Shown: positions 5,749 through 35,365 of the stretch, piece after piece
Layout: each line of letters starts with the position of its first letter
How positions within the stretch are numbered: the first letter of the stretch is position 1
From: a virus
UHGV virus genome: UHGV-1474357
Reading direction: 5' to 3' (one strand)
DNA: 40,754 nucleotides
The notes under the pieces: generated by a model
Seen by the model: the letters and a program-made list of their open reading frames with translations, nothing else
Databases searched by the model: none
What the model was told of the DNA's origin: nothing
Position numbers and translations under genes: made by a program

Positions 5749-5829
5749 AACTTGTTACCTCGGTCTGTTACCGTTGAGGTAATAATTATGCGTATATGGT
5801 TTGATGTCAATAGATATGAGTTAAAAAAA

Positions 5830-5844
5830 TTACCCGTTAGGTAA
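5830..5844. promoter_or_regulatory. TTACC-N5-GGTAA dyad (TTACCCGTTAGGTAA), candidate left operator
   Basis: Perfect dyad arms; sits just upstream of a minus-strand TTGACA -35-like hexamer (about 5813-5818) at the head of the leftward early operon. Confidence 0.45.
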
Positions 5845-5855
5845 TCGAATAGGCA

Positions 5856-6486: not shown

Positions 6487-6541
6487 TTTCTGGAAAATCG
6501 CCTCATATATGAATCAGTAGATGATTCAATTTAAAGCAATA

Positions 6542-6556
6542 TTACCCAACAGGTAA
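6542..6556. promoter_or_regulatory. TTACC-N5-GGTAA dyad (TTACCCAACAGGTAA), candidate right operator 1
   Basis: Perfect dyad arms in the repressor/cro intergenic region. Confidence 0.5.
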
Positions 6557-6589
6557 ATGCACCCCACAGGTAACTATCCTTGATTTTTG

Positions 6590-6916: not shown

Positions 6917-6926
6917 ATATCTATTC

Positions 6927-6941
6927 GTACCTCAAAGGTAA
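6927..6941. promoter_or_regulatory. GTACC-N5-GGTAA dyad (GTACCTCAAAGGTAA)
   Basis: Dyad-family member placed just downstream of the tR1-like terminator and upstream of the zinc-finger ORF and replication genes. Confidence 0.35.
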
Positions 6942-7021
6942 TAAAAAACCAAATCTGGTTGATCTTTTTTTTGTGTCAGCACAAAATGACCGTAATCCCA
7001 ATACTAATAACAGGGCTTACC

Positions 7022-8856: not shown

Positions 8857-8865
8857 TCTCGATGA

Positions 8866-8880
8866 TTACCTGATGGGTAA
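8866..8880. promoter_or_regulatory. TTACC-N5-GGTAA dyad (TTACCTGATGGGTAA)
   Basis: Perfect arms; about 20 bp upstream of TTGATT -35-like hexamer (8900-8905). Confidence 0.45.
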
Positions 8881-8927
8881 TAAAATATTCTAAAATCTAT
8901 TGATTTAGTGTCTTGTGTGGTTTTTAA

Positions 8928-8942
8928 TTACCTCAGGGGTAA
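8928..8942. promoter_or_regulatory. TTACC-N5-GGTAA dyad (TTACCTCAGGGGTAA)
   Basis: Perfect arms; begins at the last base of the TTTAAT -10-like hexamer (8923-8928), 4 nt before ATG 8946. Confidence 0.45.
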
Positions 8943-8945
8943 ATC

Positions 8946-12410: not shown

Positions 12411-12749
12411 ATGGCTAAATCAGCAGCAGAGCGCAAAGCCGCTCAGAGAGCCAGACAAGCTGCATCTGGTGTGCGTAAGCTGGAAATTGTGCTTGATGCT
12501 CAGGAAATTGAAATGCTGGAGCGTAGCTGTGCCACGCGTCGCCCCGGGCGTGCGCCTTACGAATTTGGTGAGTATATTGCGTTACTGATCCGCCAGGATG
12601 ATGCACGCGTGCGCGGGCGTATAAAATCGATCAGCAGAAAACGTTGCGGTAAGTGTGGCGAGAGAGTTCCTGTGAATTCATGCCCGTGTAATGGTGACTC
12701 GCAATGCTGGGTGACCAAAGGCTGGCATGAAACGAAATTAATATTGTGA
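12411..12749 (+). CDS. Small zinc-ribbon protein (C-x2-C...C-x-C), possible late-gene regulator
   Basis: 112 aa; C-terminal CGKCGERVPVNSCPCNG; last gene before the terminase cassette. Confidence 0.5.
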   Translation: MAKSAAERKAAQRARQAASGVRKLEIVLDAQEIEMLERSCATRRPGRAPYEFGEYIALLIRQDDARVRGRIKSISRKRCGKCGERVPVNSCPCNGDSQCWVTKGWHETKLIL

Positions 12750-12755
12750 CATGTC
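12741..12755. repeat. 15-bp repeat TTGTGACATGTCACG (copy 1), contains perfect palindrome GTGACATGTCAC
   Basis: Exact 15-bp match to 15008-15022; the two copies bracket the terminase genes. Confidence 0.6.
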
Positions 12756-12798
12756 ACGAGTGGGTTATGCATGATGAATTTGATGGGCTTTGAATACT

Positions 12799-12824
12799 GC
12801 CGCCAACTATGGCGGCTTTATTTT
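12799..12824 (+). terminator. Intrinsic terminator immediately upstream of terminase small subunit
   Basis: Hairpin GCCGCC-AACTAT-GGCGGC followed by TTTATTTT. Confidence 0.65.
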
Positions 12825-12867
12825 GCATGGTACTATTACCACAACGGTAACTATTACCACGGTGGTT

Positions 12868-13464
12868 ATGATGCCTGCTGAACCTAAAACCTATAAACGC
12901 AAATCAACGCAATTTAAGCCACTAACAGCAATGCAGGAGGCTTATTGCCAGTCATACATCAAAACTCCTGAAAACCAGACTCAGGCAGCGATTAACGCAG
13001 GATTCTCCCCAAATACAGCGGCAGTTAAAGCCAGTGTCATGATGCGCGATGAACGCATTCAAAAACGCATTGCCGAGTTGATGGAGGAGCGCAACAAACG
13101 AATGCGTGTCAGTGCTGATTACGTTCTCATGCGCCTGGTGGAGATCGACCAGATGGACGTGATCGACATCCTCAACGACGATGGGAGCCTTAAACCAATC
13201 CGTGAGTGGCCGAAAATCTGGCGCACTACGCTTAGTGGCTTTGATCTGTCATCGACCATCATGAACATGAACGAGGATTCAATAGAGACAATCCTCAAAA
13301 AAATTAAATGGCCTGACAAGGTGAAGAACCTTGAGCTGATTGGTAAGCATGTTGATGTCAACGCATTCAAAGAACGTCTGGATGTTAATGTGAATGTGAC
13401 AATTGCTGATCGCATAGCAGCAGCCAGGAAGCGACTCAAAGAACGTCAGGATGGTAATCAGTGA
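12868..13464 (+). CDS. Terminase small subunit
   Basis: 198 aa from ATG 12868; position immediately upstream of and overlapping the large terminase (GTGA); helix-rich N-terminal region typical of TerS. Confidence 0.65.
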   Translation: MMPAEPKTYKRKSTQFKPLTAMQEAYCQSYIKTPENQTQAAINAGFSPNTAAVKASVMMRDERIQKRIAELMEERNKRMRVSADYVLMRLVEIDQMDVIDILNDDGSLKPIREWPKIWRTTLSGFDLSSTIMNMNEDSIETILKKIKWPDKVKNLELIGKHVDVNAFKERLDVNVNVTIADRIAAARKRLKERQDGNQ

Positions 13465-14936
13465 CAGATACAGCGTTATCTCCTGAAGAGCAGTTAATCG
13501 AGGATATTGCAGGGTTCACTCACGATCCGCTTGGCTATGCCCTCTATGCGTTCCCGTGGGGGGAAGATGGGACTGAACTGGCACATGCCACCGGTCCACG
13601 TCAGTGGCAGGCTGATGCGTTCCGAGAGATACGTGATCACCTGCAGAATCCAGAGACGCGCTATCAGCCGCTTATGCTGGCACGCGCTTCGGGTCACGGT
13701 ATTGGTAAATCCGCATTCATCTCAATGCTGATCAACTGGGGCATGTCCACTTGCGAGGATTGTAAGGTTGTGGTGACCGCCAACACCGACAACCAGCTAC
13801 GAACGAAGACCTGGCCGGAAATTATCAAGTGGTCGAACCTTGCTATCACGAAAGACTGGTTTACCTGTACCGCTACCGCGATGTACAGCAATGATCCTGG
13901 ACACGACAAGCGGTGGCGAGCTGACGCAATACCCTGGTCTGAGCACAACACTGAGGCATTCGCCGGACTACACAACGAGCGCAAACGCATCATCGTGGTA
14001 TTCGATGAAGCGTCGAACATTGCGGATCTGGTGTGGGAAGTTGCCGAGGGTGCACTAACGGACGAAGACACTGAGATTATCTGGGTGGCGTTCGGAAACC
14101 CGACGCGTAATACCGGACGTTTCCGCGAATGTTTCCGCAAATATAAACACCGCTGGAAAACTGCGCAGATTGACAGCCGAACGGTGGAAGGCACTAACAA
14201 ACAGCAGTTGCAGAAATGGGTTGATGACTACGGGGAAGACAGCGACTTCGTTAAAATCCGTGTGCGCGGCATATTCCCTGATGCATCTGAATTGCAGTTT
14301 ATCCCTACCGGTCTTACTGACGAGGCAATGAAACGGGTGGTAACCGCTGCGCAGGTGGCACATGCTCCGGTGATAATCGGCGTTGACCCGGCATACTCCG
14401 GCGTTGATGACGCGGTGATATACCTGCGGCAGGGGCTACACAGTAAGGTGCTGTGGACTGGCAACAAGACTACCGACGATCTGATTATGGCGAAGCGTAT
14501 CGCTGACTTTGAAGACCAGTATCAGGCTGACGCGGTGTTCATCGACTTCGGTTACGGAACCGGTTTGAAGTCAATCGGTGATGGCTGGGGTCGTACATGG
14601 CAACTTGTTCCGTTCGGTGGCGCGTCTACTGACCCGCAGATGCTCAACAAGCGTGGGGAGATGTTCAACTCATGCAAGACATGGCTGAGGCTGGGCGGCA
14701 TGCTGGATGACCAGGAAACAGCGGACGACCTGTCTGCGGCAGAGTACAAAGTTCGAGTGGACGGTAAAATCGTTATCGAACCGAAGGAAGATATCAAGGA
14801 GCGGCTTGGGCGTTCTCCTGGTAAAGGCGATGCGCTACTGCTGACGTTTGCGTTCCCTGTGTCGAAGCGTCTGCGAATTCCCGGGCAGCAGAACCAGCAA
14901 GGCAAGGCCATCACAGATTACGATCCATATGCTTAA
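13461..14936 (+). CDS. Terminase large subunit
   Basis: 491 aa; Walker-A-like region (LARASGHGIGKSAF), DEAS-type Walker B (VVFDEASNI) and C-terminal nuclease-like region; GTG start overlapping TerS stop. Confidence 0.88.
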   Translation: MTDTALSPEEQLIEDIAGFTHDPLGYALYAFPWGEDGTELAHATGPRQWQADAFREIRDHLQNPETRYQPLMLARASGHGIGKSAFISMLINWGMSTCEDCKVVVTANTDNQLRTKTWPEIIKWSNLAITKDWFTCTATAMYSNDPGHDKRWRADAIPWSEHNTEAFAGLHNERKRIIVVFDEASNIADLVWEVAEGALTDEDTEIIWVAFGNPTRNTGRFRECFRKYKHRWKTAQIDSRTVEGTNKQQLQKWVDDYGEDSDFVKIRVRGIFPDASELQFIPTGLTDEAMKRVVTAAQVAHAPVIIGVDPAYSGVDDAVIYLRQGLHSKVLWTGNKTTDDLIMAKRIADFEDQYQADAVFIDFGYGTGLKSIGDGWGRTWQLVPFGGASTDPQMLNKRGEMFNSCKTWLRLGGMLDDQETADDLSAAEYKVRVDGKIVIEPKEDIKERLGRSPGKGDALLLTFAFPVSKRLRIPGQQNQQGKAITDYDPYA

Positions 14937-14986
14937 TCCGCTGGTGGGGATAATGTCGTTGATATCCTCTGATGAGGATAAAACAA

Positions 14987-15010
14987 AGCCAGCTCATCGG
15001 CTGGCTGTTT
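14987..15010 (+). terminator. Hairpin with short T-run after terminase large subunit
   Basis: AGCCAGC-TCATC-GGCTGGCT followed by GTTT; weak T-run. Confidence 0.4.
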
Positions 15011-15022
15011 GTGACATGTCAC
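15008..15022. repeat. 15-bp repeat TTGTGACATGTCACG (copy 2)
   Basis: Exact match to 12741-12755; lies between convergent terL and the minus-strand orphan gene. Confidence 0.6.
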
Positions 15023-15026
15023 GGTG

Positions 15027-15446
15027 TTACTTAATGGCATTAAATCCAGCGTTGATGGCTTCCGCAATATTGATGGCACTTGTTTTATCGAAGTGCCCAT
15101 TCTGAATAAGCGCCGCATGCAGGCATTGTAACTTCATGTTGTATAAGTGTTCGCTCATGTAATCATTATCACTTTTTGCTTTAGCGTAAACAGCGCGAGA
15201 AATATCAAAAACATCGCCTTTTTCCATTTCAGAACGTTGTGCTGTTATCCAGTCATGGAACGTAACGCTAGTACCATGGTCTTCGCTAAGAGTTAACCCG
15301 GCCAGTCCCTCACTCTGAATTACTTCGTAATGCATTTCATTACCAGCAAAAACGCCATAAAAAATGCAGTCTTCAGCCTGAACGATACGAGAATATTTTA
15401 ATGGCCATTCATTTAGATACTTAGCCAACATATCAATTGTCTTCAT
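15027..15446 (-). CDS. Hypothetical protein (139 aa), orphan minus-strand gene inside the late region
   Basis: Strong SD AAGGTGAG before ATG 15446; opposite orientation to all flanking late genes; no recognised domain. Confidence 0.6.
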   Translation of the reverse strand: MKTIDMLAKYLNEWPLKYSRIVQAEDCIFYGVFAGNEMHYEVIQSEGLAGLTLSEDHGTSVTFHDWITAQRSEMEKGDVFDISRAVYAKAKSDNDYMSEHLYNMKLQCLHAALIQNGHFDKTSAINIAEAINAGFNAIK

Positions 15447-15643: not shown

Positions 15644-15720
15644 TGGCGTGGCATGCAGGATTCGAACCTGCGACCAACCGCTTAGAAGGCGGTTGCTCTG
15701 TCCGACTGAGCTAATGCCAC
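15644..15720 (-). tRNA. tRNA-Arg (anticodon UCU), argU-like, CCA encoded
   Basis: Minus-strand sequence GTGGCAT-TA-GCTC-AGTCGGACA-GAGC-A-ACCGC-CTTCTAA-GCGGT-TGGTC-GCAGG-TTCGAAT-CCTGC-ATGCCAC-G-CCA folds as a canonical cloverleaf with all four stems Watson-Crick paired; anticodon loop CU-UCU-AA. Confidence 0.9.
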
Positions 15721-16042
15721 AACGCTGAGAGCACTTAGCCTGTTAAGGCGCCACACTTTGTCGCGGCTCCATAAATGCTCTCATCGTTGTACCCTCGTCT
15801 CTTCCGAGGTGTCACACCGAATCGCCGGGATGGTGAATCCCCGTGCGCGGAATAAAACCGCTCGACTTGCACATTCCGGCTACCTGGTTCGTTTGCCCGA
15901 GCAAGGGAGGGTGCCCCTTAAACGTATCCAGACAGCTATCGGCGCATGTGCCATACACCGTACTGCTCAAAATAAAAGCTCACCCCACCTGTTCAATTTA
16001 ACGACAAGCCAGTCAGGTTAATAACCGGAATGAACTCTTTGC

Positions 16043-16057
16043 TTACCTGAAGGGTAA
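16043..16057. promoter_or_regulatory. TTACC-N5-GGTAA dyad (TTACCTGAAGGGTAA)
   Basis: Perfect arms; about 90 bp upstream of the small gene preceding the portal. Confidence 0.4.
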
Positions 16058-16147
16058 TAATTCGTGCGTTAAATGTCAACTGTCTACGATAAATAAATCA
16101 TATGTGGTTAAATTGGTAATAATTTAATTGCGTACGGAGTCATTGAT

Positions 16148-16368: not shown

Positions 16369-18048
16369 ATGGCGGAAACAACTAAAGAGCGATTGAACAA
16401 ACAGTTCGCACAACTTGAAAGCGAGCGTCAGTCGTTCGAGCCGCACTGGCGCGAGTTGAGTGATTACATCAACCCGCGTGGTTCCCGCTTTCTGACTTCT
16501 GAGGTTAACCGTAACGATCGACGCAATACACGCATTATTGATTCGACCGGGACTATGGCGGCGCGCACTCTCGCCAGCGGCATGATGTCAGGCATCACAA
16601 GCCCCGCGCGTCCGTGGTTTCGCCTGGCTACGCCAGATCCTGAAATGATGGATTATGGCCCTGTTAAGTTGTGGCTTGAGGCGGTGCAGAACCGCATGAA
16701 CGATATGTTCAATAAGTCGAATCTCTATCAGTCGCTGCCGCAGTTATACGGAAGCCTCGGCACATACAGCACTGGTGCAATGGCAGTGCTGGAGGATGAC
16801 GAGGACATCATTCGCACAATGCCATTCCCGATAGGCAGTTACTACCTGGCTAACTCACCTCGTGGCAGTGTGGACACCTGTTTTCGCAAGTTCTCTATGA
16901 CTGTTCGTCAGCTTGTTCAGGAGTTCGGGCTAAATAACGTCAGCGAATCCGTAAAAAGCATGTGGGAAAGCGGCACCTACGAGAAGTGGATTGAAGTGAT
17001 GCATTCGGTTTACCCGAACATTGACCGCGATACATCGAAGCTGGATAGCAAGAACAAGCCATTCAAATCGGTTTATTACGAGGTTGGTGGCGATAACGAC
17101 AAGTTGTTGCGTGAGTCCGGATTCGATGAGTTTCCAATTATGGCCCCGCGCTGGGAAGTTAACGGCGAAGATGTTTATGGATCATCATGCCCGGGTATGC
17201 TGGCGCTTGGACCTGTTAAGGCATTGCAGCTTCTCCAGAAGCGCAAGTCGCAGTTGATTGATAAAGCCACCAATCCGCCGATGGTTGCTCCGAATTCCCT
17301 CAAGAATCAGCGTGCCTCCCTTCTTCCTGGCGACATCACGTATATCGATCAGATTACTGGTCAGGATGGTTTCAGGCCTGCTTATCTGGTTAACCCCAGT
17401 ACAGCAGATTTGGTGGCAGACATTCAGGACACTCGTCAAATCATTAACAGCGCCTACTTTGTCGATCTGTTCATGATGTTGCAGAACATCAATACCCGCT
17501 CGATGCCTGTGGAAGCGGTGATCGAAATGAAAGAAGAAAAACTTCTGATGTTGGGGCCGGTTCTGGAGCGCCTGAACGACGAATGTCTTAATCCTCTCAT
17601 TGATCGCTCTTTCTCGATGATGGTGCGTAAAAACATGCTGCCGCCACCGCCTGACGCGATGGAAGGCATGCCCCTGAAGGTCGAATACATTTCCGTCATG
17701 GCTCAGGCGCAGAAGTCTATCGGCCTGTCCAGTCTGGCGTCCACGGTTAACTTCATTGGTCAACTTGCGCAAGCGAAACCAGAAGCTCTCGACAAACTCA
17801 ACGTTGATCAGGCGATCGATGCATTCGCTGATATGTCCGGAGTGTCTCCAACCGTCATTGTTCCGCAGGAACAGGTTGAGCAGGCTCGCCAGCAACGGGC
17901 ACAGCAACAACAGCAGCAACAAATGATGGCGATGGGGATGGCGGCGGCACAGGGTGCCAAGACGCTAAGCGAAGCTAAAACTTCGGATCCGAGTGTTTTG
18001 TCAGCTATGGCGAATGCAGTTAGTGGTCAGGGTGGGCAATCACAATGA
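16369..18048 (+). CDS. Portal protein (T7 gp8-like head-to-tail connector)
   Basis: 559 aa, size and position (before scaffold and capsid) as in T7-like modules; Gln-rich C-terminal tail; sequence recognised as head-tail connector family from memory. Confidence 0.75.
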   Translation: MAETTKERLNKQFAQLESERQSFEPHWRELSDYINPRGSRFLTSEVNRNDRRNTRIIDSTGTMAARTLASGMMSGITSPARPWFRLATPDPEMMDYGPVKLWLEAVQNRMNDMFNKSNLYQSLPQLYGSLGTYSTGAMAVLEDDEDIIRTMPFPIGSYYLANSPRGSVDTCFRKFSMTVRQLVQEFGLNNVSESVKSMWESGTYEKWIEVMHSVYPNIDRDTSKLDSKNKPFKSVYYEVGGDNDKLLRESGFDEFPIMAPRWEVNGEDVYGSSCPGMLALGPVKALQLLQKRKSQLIDKATNPPMVAPNSLKNQRASLLPGDITYIDQITGQDGFRPAYLVNPSTADLVADIQDTRQIINSAYFVDLFMMLQNINTRSMPVEAVIEMKEEKLLMLGPVLERLNDECLNPLIDRSFSMMVRKNMLPPPPDAMEGMPLKVEYISVMAQAQKSIGLSSLASTVNFIGQLAQAKPEALDKLNVDQAIDAFADMSGVSPTVIVPQEQVEQARQQRAQQQQQQQMMAMGMAAAQGAKTLSEAKTSDPSVLSAMANAVSGQGGQSQ

Positions 18049-18341
18049 CAGATTACGAAGACGATCAACTGAAAGAAGAAAACGCCCGTAAGCAACGTGA
18101 CATGGCACAGCGTGAAATTGATGACATTCGCTTTGTCATGAGCAGTGAACAGGGGCGTCGCGTTGTCTGGTCGGTGCTGGAGAAAGGCCGTGTGTTTTCC
18201 GCTATCTCACCGATGGACGCTATGGCAATGGCATTTAATGAGGGGCAACGCAATCTGGCGCTGGAACTGTTTCAGCGCGTTATGGCGCATTGCCCTGAAC
18301 AGTATTTGAAGATGGCCAAAGAGGCCAGTGAACAGGAGTGA
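18045..18341 (+). CDS. Hypothetical protein (98 aa)
   Basis: ATG overlaps portal stop (ATGA); acidic N-terminus. Confidence 0.55.
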   Translation: MTDYEDDQLKEENARKQRDMAQREIDDIRFVMSSEQGRRVVWSVLEKGRVFSAISPMDAMAMAFNEGQRNLALELFQRVMAHCPEQYLKMAKEASEQE

Positions 18342-31184: not shown

Positions 31185-32036
31185 ATGAAAAAAATAAATT
31201 TGTTTTTTGGCATAGTGCTTTCAATAGTCTCTGTAAATCCTACAGCTGCCAGTTCATTGCAATGCAATAAGGATAACTTTGATGCATGCAAAACGTGTGA
31301 ACAATTATCAAAGGCTATCGACTTAAAAGAACCTAATCGTGGCGATTACTATAGAGGGGCTTTATGGAATGGGCTTTACGCCTCTTATGTAATTAATTGC
31401 CCTGTGGTTGCTGAGAAGTTACTGAGCCATGGTGCTATACCATCATATGGCGGATATATGGGGTCTATGGGGGCGGTTCTGACAGGAAAATGGCCTCATA
31501 ACAATGAATCAATAAATCTTTCATGGGCAGATTTGCTTATAAAACATGGATTTGATGTTAATAGGCATACGGGGAATTATAAATCAGCTACTGAAGTATG
31601 GGCTATAGATAAAAAACAGATTGAATATAAGTCAGTTTTTGACAAGTTAATTCAATCCAGCGAAGTAAAACCACTCGATCCTTCAAGAAATTTAGAATGG
31701 TGTGCGTCTGAAGGGTATCGCTCAGTTGTCGTTTATTCCCTTAACTCATGTATAGAAAATGCTATAAAACGTTTGGATGATGGTGTTTCTTCAGCGTCTG
31801 ATATTTCATCAGCAGCCGTAAATTCCTGTACTAGCGATGTAGAAAATTTCAATAAGCATTTGGCATGCAAAGCAGCTGTTAAAGAAAACTCTGATAAAGA
31901 GAGAAGCGACGTTTACCAGTTATTAACCAGTGATAGTCAAATGAATAAAAATGTTATTGATATGCTGAAGGAAAGAAATATTGAAACGGTTCTTGAATTT
32001 AGAGCTGAAAATCGATCAGCGAAAACTGCACAGTGA
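31185..32036 (+). CDS. Secreted protein with ankyrin-like repeats (AT-rich cargo gene)
   Basis: N-terminal signal peptide (MKKINLFFGIVLSIVSVNPTAAS); repeat-like segments LLSHGAIPS and LLIKHGFDVNRHTGN; clearly lower GC than flanking virion genes; strong terminator follows. Confidence 0.55.
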   Translation: MKKINLFFGIVLSIVSVNPTAASSLQCNKDNFDACKTCEQLSKAIDLKEPNRGDYYRGALWNGLYASYVINCPVVAEKLLSHGAIPSYGGYMGSMGAVLTGKWPHNNESINLSWADLLIKHGFDVNRHTGNYKSATEVWAIDKKQIEYKSVFDKLIQSSEVKPLDPSRNLEWCASEGYRSVVVYSLNSCIENAIKRLDDGVSSASDISSAAVNSCTSDVENFNKHLACKAAVKENSDKERSDVYQLLTSDSQMNKNVIDMLKERNIETVLEFRAENRSAKTAQ

Positions 32037-32057
32037 TCAAACAGGCCGCTTTCGCGG
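32033..32057 (+). terminator. Intrinsic terminator after secreted ankyrin-like gene
   Basis: AGGCCGC-TTTC-GCGGCCT followed by TGTTTTT. Confidence 0.7.
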
Positions 32058-32065
32058 CCTTGTTT

Positions 32066-32907: not shown

Positions 32908-33024
32908 ATCATCCTCCCATACGGGAACAGACGTGACTTACATACGGTGTGATTTTGACTAGTTAACTTTCTGCAGCAAAACCATCACGGTAACTACAAA
33001 CTAAAATGTTACAAATCAACTTTC

Positions 33025-33039
33025 TTACCTTTGGGGTAA
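33025..33039. promoter_or_regulatory. TTACC-N5-GGTAA dyad (TTACCTTTGGGGTAA)
   Basis: Perfect arms; on the minus strand it sits 5 nt upstream of a TTGATT -35-like hexamer ahead of the two-gene cassette. Confidence 0.45.
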
Positions 33040-33065
33040 TAGTACGCTATTCACCTGCAATCTGT

Positions 33066-34030: not shown

Positions 34031-34033
34031 AAT

Positions 34034-34048
34034 TTACCGCAAAGGTAA
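34034..34048. promoter_or_regulatory. TTACC-N5-GGTAA dyad (TTACCGCAAAGGTAA)
   Basis: Perfect arms; directly abuts the -10-like hexamer of the putative leftward ant promoter. Confidence 0.45.
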
Positions 34049-34126
34049 TGATAAACGCGAAGAAATATTAAAATCAACCGTATTTGGTTGATTGCGTTTA
34101 ACGCTTGATCACCTGAAAGCAAGATA

Positions 34127-34141
34127 TTACCTTTAAGGTAA
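34127..34141. promoter_or_regulatory. TTACC-N5-GGTAA dyad (TTACCTTTAAGGTAA)
   Basis: Perfect arms; 20 nt upstream of ATG 34162. Confidence 0.45.
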
Positions 34142-34161
34142 TGTTATTGTGAGGAAAAGCA

Positions 34162-35210: not shown

Positions 35211-35246
35211 CAAATAATTTGTTTGCTATCCAGCACGTTTTGCAAA

Positions 35247-35261
35247 TTACCCGAAAGGTAA
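35247..35261. promoter_or_regulatory. TTACC-N5-GGTAA dyad (TTACCCGAAAGGTAA)
   Basis: Perfect arms; between the LexA-boxed small gene and the tailspike gene. Confidence 0.45.
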
Positions 35262-35365
35262 TATCTATTGGTATTTACAGTCTTTTTATCCATATATGGT
35301 TTTTCAGGTAATAGAATAACCAGATATGCGGCGCAACGGGTGCTGCGACTATCTGGAGATTTAAC

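Follow-up and report, generated by a model that had tools for sequence, protein, structure and literature searches.

Small dimeric regulators that read a dyad site are a known kind of control system. The operators of the ribbon-helix-helix (RHH) repressors, which are short dyads or heptads (Arc and Mnt of P22, MetJ, CopG, and omega of pSM19035) overlap promoters, and MatP of E. coli has a 13-bp site, matS (GTGACRNYGTCAC), in the Ter macrodomain. In phage lambda, Q is the last early gene and its site, qut, lies in the late promoter PR', which has a sigma-dependent promoter-proximal pause. Conserved boundary or linker sequences reportedly mark the mosaic joints of lambdoid phages, and morons are said to occur there. 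Here we describe an element that recalls each of these in UHGV-1474357, a viral sequence of 40,754 nucleotides (the window, that is, the whole stretch analyzed), which is a complete phiV10/epsilon15-type prophage of the genus Uetakevirus. Two copies of a perfect 12-bp palindrome, GTGACATGTCAC, bracket the terminase genes terS and terL, and the first copy overlaps the end of the gene for a 112-aa putative regulator, here called Reg. From comparison across phages, we predict that Reg very probably recognizes the dyad as its cognate site. The best explanation for the system as a whole, to which we give a probability of roughly 0.5, is that dyads bound by Reg serve as roadblocks or insulators at the ends of transcription units. 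Unlike the operators of the RHH repressors, the dyads do not overlap promoters; Reg also differs in having an extra Cys-rich C-terminal tail. The elements of the locus, in order, are as follows.

12411–12749, plus strand: reg, gene for the 112-aa putative regulator (phrog_536); its TGA stop codon lies inside dyad copy 1.
12745–12758, no strand: dyad copy 1 (site 1), T-GTGACATGTCAC-G, with the palindrome at 12746–12757.
12767–12793, plus strand: mini-open reading frame (mini-ORF) of 8 codons, MHDEFDGL*; it starts 9 nt past copy 1 and stops 5 nt before the terminator stem.
12799–12816 (stem), with a T-run to 12825, plus strand: intrinsic terminator that closes the early-right operon; it separates copy 1 from the terS promoter region and is conserved in relatives.
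12835–12869: two operator-like dyads, ATTACC-N5-GGTAAY, directly upstream of terS.
12871–13464, plus strand: terS, bracketed by the two dyad copies.
13461–14936, plus strand: terL, bracketed likewise.
14987–15006: bidirectional terminator hairpin with a good T-run on the minus strand and a weaker one on the plus strand; it abuts copy 2 on the left.
15010–15023, no strand: dyad copy 2 (site 2), T-GTGACATGTCAC-G, with the palindrome at 15011–15022.
15027–15446, minus strand: cargo gene of phrog_4846, of unknown function; its stop is 4 nt from copy 2.
18097–18108: near-copy GTGACATGGCAC, one mismatch, inside a coding region; kept in close relatives only and not in distant ones.

The exact 15-mer TTGTGACATGTCACG occurs only twice in the window, at 12744–12758 and 15009–15023, on the plus strand in both cases. 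Identity between the copies stops at these 15 bases, with none in the sequence on either side. A preliminary description of this DNA had recognized the identical pair and had placed it at 12741–12755 and 15008–15022, which is 3 and 1 nt too low; the perfect 12-bp palindrome that it saw in each copy is indeed there. When up to two mismatches are allowed, the window holds four matches to the 15-mer against 0.03 expected, and none of 100 shuffles reached four, so the motif is far from being a common sequence of this genome. In most relatives, site 1 reads AGTGTGAC, and the 'TT' of the 15-mer is peculiar to this window; the shared functional core is therefore a dyad of 12–14 bp and not the 15-mer. 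We take the functional unit to be the 14-bp dyad YGTGACATGTCACR, to which the perfect palindrome extends, with the consensus YGTGAC-AT-GTCACR. All 12 central positions are invariant across contexts. Our first statistics on the flanking bases were biased because many loci had been selected with the 14-mer; in unbiased contexts, the base at −1 is Y and that at +1 is R, in all four combinations, and the dyad therefore has no intrinsic orientation. A fixed orientation, with T..G on the late strand and variable DNA always to the right, was considered and rejected, since c..a, c..g and t..a flanks were found and site 3 of E. coli relatives has the opposite arrangement. The one-mismatch copy at 18097–18108 is probably incidental and non-functional.

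Conservation was assessed in 80 IMG/VR contigs whose TerL is 99–100% identical (78 informative loci) and in 14 wider enterobacterial relatives at species level with TerL 74–95% identical (from Klebsiella, Citrobacter, Erwinia, Rahnella, Buttiauxella, Kluyvera and others). In the close set, site 1 carries the exact 12-mer at 76 of the 78 loci and a form with one mismatch at the other two, so that the motif is far from absent among relatives with this terminase. Site 2 is more variable (exact in 63/78, one mismatch in 5/78, absent in 10/78). At species level, site 1 is exact in 12/14 despite diverged flanks, and site 2 was found in 7/14. Two loci (L083 and L091) have a one-mismatch variant at site 1 and the unaltered 12-mer at site 2. 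In epsilon15, the exact sequence occurs three times: past gp49, past the terL terminator, and over the gp18 stop just before a terminator. In phiV10, site 1 has the one-mismatch form GTGACATGTTAC, and the linear record NC_007804.2 opens in the middle of this palindrome, which splits the element over the record ends. The third copy is common to many E. coli relatives, where it lies beside a hairpin that matches positions 32044–32059 of the window. In the window, this hairpin, GGCCGCTTTCGCGGCC, is a bidirectional terminator between the gene at 31185–32036 and a small minus-strand gene for a secreted or lipoprotein-like product; no dyad stands there, and in the E. coli relatives in which the third dyad abuts the equivalent hairpin a variable plus-strand gene lies beside it.

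The presence of the dyad follows that of Reg. Of 42 loci retrieved through TerL homologues from GTDB species, 14 encode Reg, and each of these contains the exact 12-mer; the other 28, which lack Reg, are devoid of GTGAC-NN-GTCAC sites altogether. This comparison is confounded by host clade. A second set was fetched solely through a Reg homologue with 47% identity, a gene that follows a DnaB-like gene in the nin region of lambdoid phages. Here, 60 of 62 IMG/VR loci have an exact 12-mer within 7 kb, and the set contains 69 exact 12-mers in 839 kb against 0.05 expected. Some dyads of these lambdoid phages are embedded in a cII/YdaT-like gene and persist there even when the codon context changes; the others occupy intergenic DNA, 0.3–2 kb ahead of reg, or stand 7 kb beyond it, behind a capsid-region gene. 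Conversely, 120 exact 14-mer matches drawn at random from IMG/VR had Reg in the same stretch in 46 cases, and many of the others were remaining Uetakevirus sites. A further prophage type has Reg and the dyad upstream of xis-int. Once shared ancestry is allowed for, these amount to about ten independent contexts.

Divergent Reg homologues are accompanied by dyads with unchanged half-sites and 2-bp spacing and with another centre (chance expectation ∼0.04 per genome). These are listed by phage or locus, with the dyad or its centre and its place.

N15 (gp46): GTGAC-TG/CA-GTCAC, three copies, one of them over the gp46 stop.
phiKO2 (gp45): GTGAC-TG/CA-GTCAC, three copies, syntenic with those of N15 in diverged flanks.
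Yersinia P2-like phage: TGTGACGCGTCACA, one copy, on the Reg stop codon.
Vibrio siphophage K233: GTGAC-AC/GC-GTCAC, three copies, one of them 31 nt upstream of terS.
L194 and L083: dyad with centre CT, after or downstream of reg.
L305: dyad with centre GT, directly past the reg stop.

The centre is AT, TG, GC, AC or CT according to the Reg subfamily. In the alignment, the strand of Reg that presumably reads the DNA differs with the class of the centre (K-L-E-I for AT, R-R-D-W for TG, E-I-R-A for GC), and the N-terminal AER...R helix is kept throughout. Because N15 and phiV10 both infect E. coli and have different centres, a reader supplied by the host is argued against. A distant Reg homologue in Vibrio phage 10N.286.54.E5_PE002 had no GTGAC-NN-GTCAC site. 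The earlier proposal of a regulator binding site therefore gains considerable weight, as the dyad co-occurs and co-varies with a DNA-binding-like protein encoded beside copy 1 across unrelated phage types. SopB was considered as the reader of the N15 variants and rejected: the SopB centromeres IR1–4 of N15 are GTGCGACCnnGGTCGCAC (PMC7205306) and differ in sequence from the dyads. The variant dyads that lie away from reg in N15 (L310, positions 28550 and 33237) and phiKO2 (L314, 27784 and 32664) are syntenic. One lies ∼620 nt into the repA replicase gene, and the other has the repA operon on one side and, on the opposite side, the terminator before the antirepressor operon; these are places where control of elongation would touch replication and anti-immunity. 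A separate observation concerns five IMG/VR contigs of 58–68% GC (L144, L163, L173, L192 and L230), in which iteron-like arrays of GTGAC/GTCACGC half-sites surround an exact 12-mer. No Reg homologue is near such arrays, and that of L230 lies inside an O-like replication-initiator gene; we therefore set them apart from the dyad system, and they probably represent origins that another protein recognizes.

Reg belongs to phrog_536, a family that carries the label 'transcriptional regulator', and its homologues include epsilon15 gp49, phiV10 gp55 and N15 gp46. The epsilon15 and phiV10 records annotate it by similarity only, and homologues are named 'hypothetical'. Sequence searches of Pfam, NCBIfam and the Protein Data Bank (PDB) gave no match, and no Pfam RHH model fits. 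The sequence has three parts, namely a basic N-terminal helix (AERKAAQRARQ), a strand-helix-helix segment (RKLEIVLD-AQEIEMLERSCA...GEYIALLIRQDDA) and the Cys-rich tail. Two AlphaFold models with mean confidence (pLDDT) of 55 and 65 place a helix at residues 5–19, an extended segment at 22–29, and helices at 30–43 and from 52. Reg looks like a protein with an RHH-like core between a basic N-terminal helix and the Cys-rich C-terminal tail. MatP would be its nearest structural and functional analogue, a likeness that we do not extend to family assignment: profile comparison of Reg with MatP (hhalign) gave a probability of 0.1–0.2%, with no detectable sequence homology, and a search for MatP homologues, which returned near-identical sequences only, left the profile comparison no better.

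The dyads lie at the ends of transcription units. They occur after reg, after terL and, in epsilon15, after gp18, away from promoters; other copies lie between convergent genes or inside genes. The hairpin that follows copy 1, with a stem that starts 41 nt downstream, had been taken for a terS terminator. It closes the preceding early operon, and terS begins only at 12871; there is therefore no terS terminator at this place. Copy 2 does come after terL, as described earlier, but 72 nt past the terL stop, behind the bidirectional terminator and beside the minus-strand cargo gene. The terminator beside site 2 is kept in relatives, even where the hairpin sequence differs. Overall, dyads adjoin GC-rich hairpins in 12 of 33 contexts, compared with 4% of random positions, and they separate consecutive or convergent units that each have an operator-bearing promoter of their own. 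The dyads of lambdoid and N15-like phages belong to early operons, in which they precede replication genes or fall inside them. When the dyads were examined as operators over promoters, the sole promoter-like match, a sigma-70 sequence at copy 1 with GTGACA as the −35 element (GTGACA-18-CATGAT), was not conserved in relatives, and the DNA that follows the dyad on the right varies. The position at unit ends rather than at promoters is the reason for proposing a roadblock or insulator.

The mechanism that we propose begins with Reg as the last gene product of the early-right operon. We infer that Reg binds the dyad physically and does so as a dimer with RHH-like geometry, which would contact each dyad symmetrically. 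Recognition of the invariant GTGAC half-sites would fall to the conserved basic helix at the N terminus, and that of the central dinucleotide to the variable β-strand. Bound Reg would then act on elongating RNA polymerase as an orientation-independent roadblock, the direction of this effect on transcription being suggested by the places where the dyads lie. As Reg, the product of a late-early gene, builds up, it would reinforce the boundaries of the early, late and convergent cargo units, and in some phages it would feed back on its own operon.

The starts of the same units carry a different signal. A 17-bp dyad, ATTACC-N5-GGTAAT, has 16 matches in the window with up to two mismatches, against 1.2 expected (5767–5845, 6541–6557, 6926–6942, 8865–8943, 12835–12869, 16042–16058, 33024–33040, 34033–34142 and 35246–35262). 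Besides those of the immunity region, there are matches ahead of terS, the portal operon and the tailspike gene and at the starts of other plus-strand units. Because these dyads precede late and cargo units and the GenBank record of epsilon15 labels their counterparts as binding sites for a repressor, the late and cargo units seem to be under direct repressor control.

A second companion of the dyad is the mini-ORF. The pattern M-x-[DY]-E-F-D-x-[FLV]-stop has 78 instances in 3.25 Mb of related loci, 75 of which lie within 50 nt of a dyad. The family can also be written M-x-[D/Y]-E-F-D-[G/R]-[F/L]-stop, with instances in epsilon15 (L125, 2158–2184, minus strand), L084, L025 and others. At site 1, the mini-ORF is on the plus strand; some relatives have it at site 2 on the minus strand, and that of epsilon15 is coupled to gp50 through ATGA. 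Its variation falls at synonymous (third codon) positions, which argues for selection on the peptide. The mini-ORF may be a translation-coupled attenuator or encode a small peptide of unknown role.

A broader form of the proposal would see in Reg and GTGAC-NN-GTCAC a widespread and undescribed system of 'genome punctuation', in which a MatP-like protein on mini-matS sites at module ends, together with the mini-ORF of the form M-x-D-E-F-D-G-F and the adjoining terminators, would control transcription between modules and define hot spots for the insertion or exchange of accessory, defence and conversion genes. It would span podoviruses, lambdoid and N15-like siphoviruses, P2-like myoviruses and Vibrio siphoviruses, and might also interface with the chromosome-organizing machinery of the host. 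We regard this extension as unlikely, though worth considering.

The main rival to the roadblock is antitermination of the Q type, in which Reg, on a dyad past its own gene, would modify the RNA polymerase of the early operon to read through the terminator at 12799–12825 into terS and the late genes, with further copies serving to re-load it. The layout matches that of lambda: the regulator is the last early gene (here the last before terS), the site lies just downstream, a terminator and the late genes follow in the order of Q-qut-tR', and gene and site move together. At site 3 of epsilon15 and E. coli relatives the dyad lies 0–3 nt upstream of a plus-strand terminator, the Cys-rich tail of Reg could touch RNA polymerase, and the promoterless mini-ORF and cargo ORFs past site 1 need read-through. 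Unlike qut, however, the dyad is accompanied by no conserved promoter and no sigma-dependent pause element, and it occurs in several copies, some of them between convergent genes or in coding regions. Every late unit has its own promoter and repressor operator, and antitermination is therefore not required. At site 2 the dyad is downstream of the plus-strand terminator, the sites of lambdoid phages and N15 lie in coding regions upstream of replication genes, and no similarity of Reg to Q proteins was found. We consider the Q-like alternative decidedly unlikely.

A third possibility is architecture of the MatP type, in which Reg oligomers would pair dyads and so loop the 2.3-kb terminase cassette or the whole genome, or would meet the host chromosome machinery, with no control of transcription. 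The half-sites of matS are those of the dyad, with one extra central base. The spacer of the dyad is nevertheless 2 bp rather than 3, and a search of the window for the 13-bp matS gave no match even with one mismatch; only the form with the 2-bp spacer occurs in the window, epsilon15 and N15. Sequence homology to MatP is not detectable, and Reg, a protein of 112 aa with a Cys-rich tail, lacks the four-helix bundle and coiled coil of MatP. Its sites lie on phage genomes at operon ends, not at a chromosomal terminus, and some phages have a single site. Bridging as the sole function is less probable still.

The dyads also coincide with the joints of the phage mosaic. At sites 1 and 2 alike, homology among relatives breaks off at one edge of the dyad, so that a short conserved sequence separates DNA that is homologous from DNA that is not. 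Variation affects the cargo on one side of each copy, whereas terS-terL, which the copies enclose, does not vary. The minus-strand genes found to the right of site 2 are of at least seven kinds, unrelated to one another or strongly diverged. On the corresponding side of site 1, the alternatives are a mini-ORF of the window type, a 186-bp insertion with a promoterless ORF, or, in several genera, cargo with a LexA-box promoter. The dyad forms the conserved edge of the cargo region; the other edge is the promoter of the next unit with its ATTACC-N5-GGTAAT operator-like dyad. One locus (L042) has two tandem units, each consisting of terminator, dyad and cargo. As the dyad is the only invariant stretch in otherwise unrelated DNA, cargo has been exchanged there, and the dyad hence appears as a mosaic joint. 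Six loci (L083, L086, L090, L093, L127 and L128) have SOS-controlled morons directly past site 1, with a strong sigma-70 promoter overlapped by a LexA box (e.g., TACTGTTTAAATGTACAGTA), and some of these encode a UmuD-like protein. A PADLOC search of the cargo genes for known defence systems gave no match.

These joints are the basis for a fourth alternative, a pure recombination hot spot or cassette junction, which would be kept for cargo exchange through short homology of the RecT/RecE kind or through a site-specific enzyme, without any regulation. The exact end of homology at the dyad edge at both sites, the tandem cassettes of L042 and the cargo that brings its own LexA-controlled promoter past site 1 in several genera are what such a hot spot would produce. 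It leaves unexplained, however, the strict invariance of 12 positions, the dyad symmetry and the co-variation of the centre with Reg subfamilies. Copies also lie in conserved coding regions where no exchange occurs (the cII/YdaT-like gene and N15 repA), and no recombinase is linked to the dyad. The lambdoid boundary sequences are comparable in that a short conserved sequence lies where phage homology ends and terminator-flanked accessory genes adjoin it. They differ in that the window dyad is strictly invariant and tied to one protein family across unrelated phage morphotypes, which argues for a primary molecular function other than recombination. We give the hot spot only a slim chance. Most simply, the mosaic joints are a consequence of the dyad, since the invariant 14-mer and the adjoining terminator are the sole homology between unrelated cargo regions. 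The idea of a scar that brackets an exchanged terminase module thus holds as far as the dyads are at mosaic joints; they are a selected invariant element rather than a scar, and terS-terL is not what was exchanged.

A site for a host factor (MatP, CRP, SlmA or similar), an RNA structure of the 3' untranslated region (UTR), or a chance repeat is scarcely plausible. The dyad does resemble the half-sites of matS and those of CRP (TGTGA/TCACA), and it is transcribed at gene ends beside terminators. The spacing is wrong for both proteins (2 vs 3 bp for matS and, by inspection, 4 vs 6 bp for CRP), and E. coli phages use differing centres that match their own Reg variant. As RNA, the hairpin is weak (−2.7 to −4.2 kcal/mol, with z-scores of −0.7 to +0.3) and no better than shuffles; compensatory changes are absent, the rare variants are single and break the symmetry, and the centre is itself palindromic and invariant. 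Chance is ruled out by the window shuffles, the 60/62 Reg-homologue loci, and the 14/14 against 0/28 TerL loci.

Least credible is the packaging signal (pac or terminase recognition element) that had also been suggested, for although copy 1 is ∼110 nt upstream of terS, the copies bracket terS-terL and a Vibrio phage K233 copy is 31 nt upstream of terS, the dyad tracks Reg and not TerL, is present far from the packaging genes in phages whose terminases are unrelated and whose cos ends are known (N15, phiKO2 and P2-like), is also present inside early genes of lambdoid phages, and is dispensable at site 2, as shown by its absence from 10 of 78 relatives with 99–100% identical TerL. Genome ends at copy 1 were considered separately and rejected; the phiV10 record had merely been opened after the stop codon of the last gene, and the ZX5 record is circular.

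In the searchable literature, no paper mentions GTGACATGTCAC, variant forms being found only in mammalian studies (mouse skin and embryonic stem (ES) cells) that are unrelated to phages, and there is no discussion of the Reg family; the ZX5 paper and searches on Uetakevirus yielded nothing on either gene or motif. What appears to be new is the Reg family together with the dyad, a location at the ends of units and over the stop codon of reg itself, the occurrence in five phage architectures, the matS-like half-sites and the mini-ORF. If the roadblock reading is right, it would give a function and a precise DNA target to phrog_536, whose members are now called 'hypothetical' or 'transcriptional regulator' in hundreds of prophages from enterobacteria and Vibrio, the phiV10/epsilon15-like, N15-like and P2-like phages among them. 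Some temperate phages would then mark the ends of units with a protein-bound dyad, in addition to repressor operators at the starts, which bears on the insulation among early, late and lysogenic-conversion genes. The dyad would also be a landmark for the places where cargo (morons) is inserted, and would so help in the discovery of new accessory or anti-defence genes. The half-sites shared with matS and the fold-level resemblance to MatP raise an evolutionary question that can be tested, and the 8-codon mini-ORF tied to the dyad is an unexplained element that merits its own study.

Two further genes serve to place the locus within the prophage.

273–1529: integrase gene.
16369–18048: portal gene.

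The variable region that separates terL from the portal gene contains a tRNA-Arg(TCT) gene (15644–15720, minus strand), which is followed by two minus-strand terminators (15600–15565 and 15480–15465) and then by the cargo gene. A Chi site, GCTGGTGG, lies at 14940–14947, 4 nt past the terL stop, and is present in many, not all, close relatives; it might shield replicating or packaging intermediates against RecBCD.

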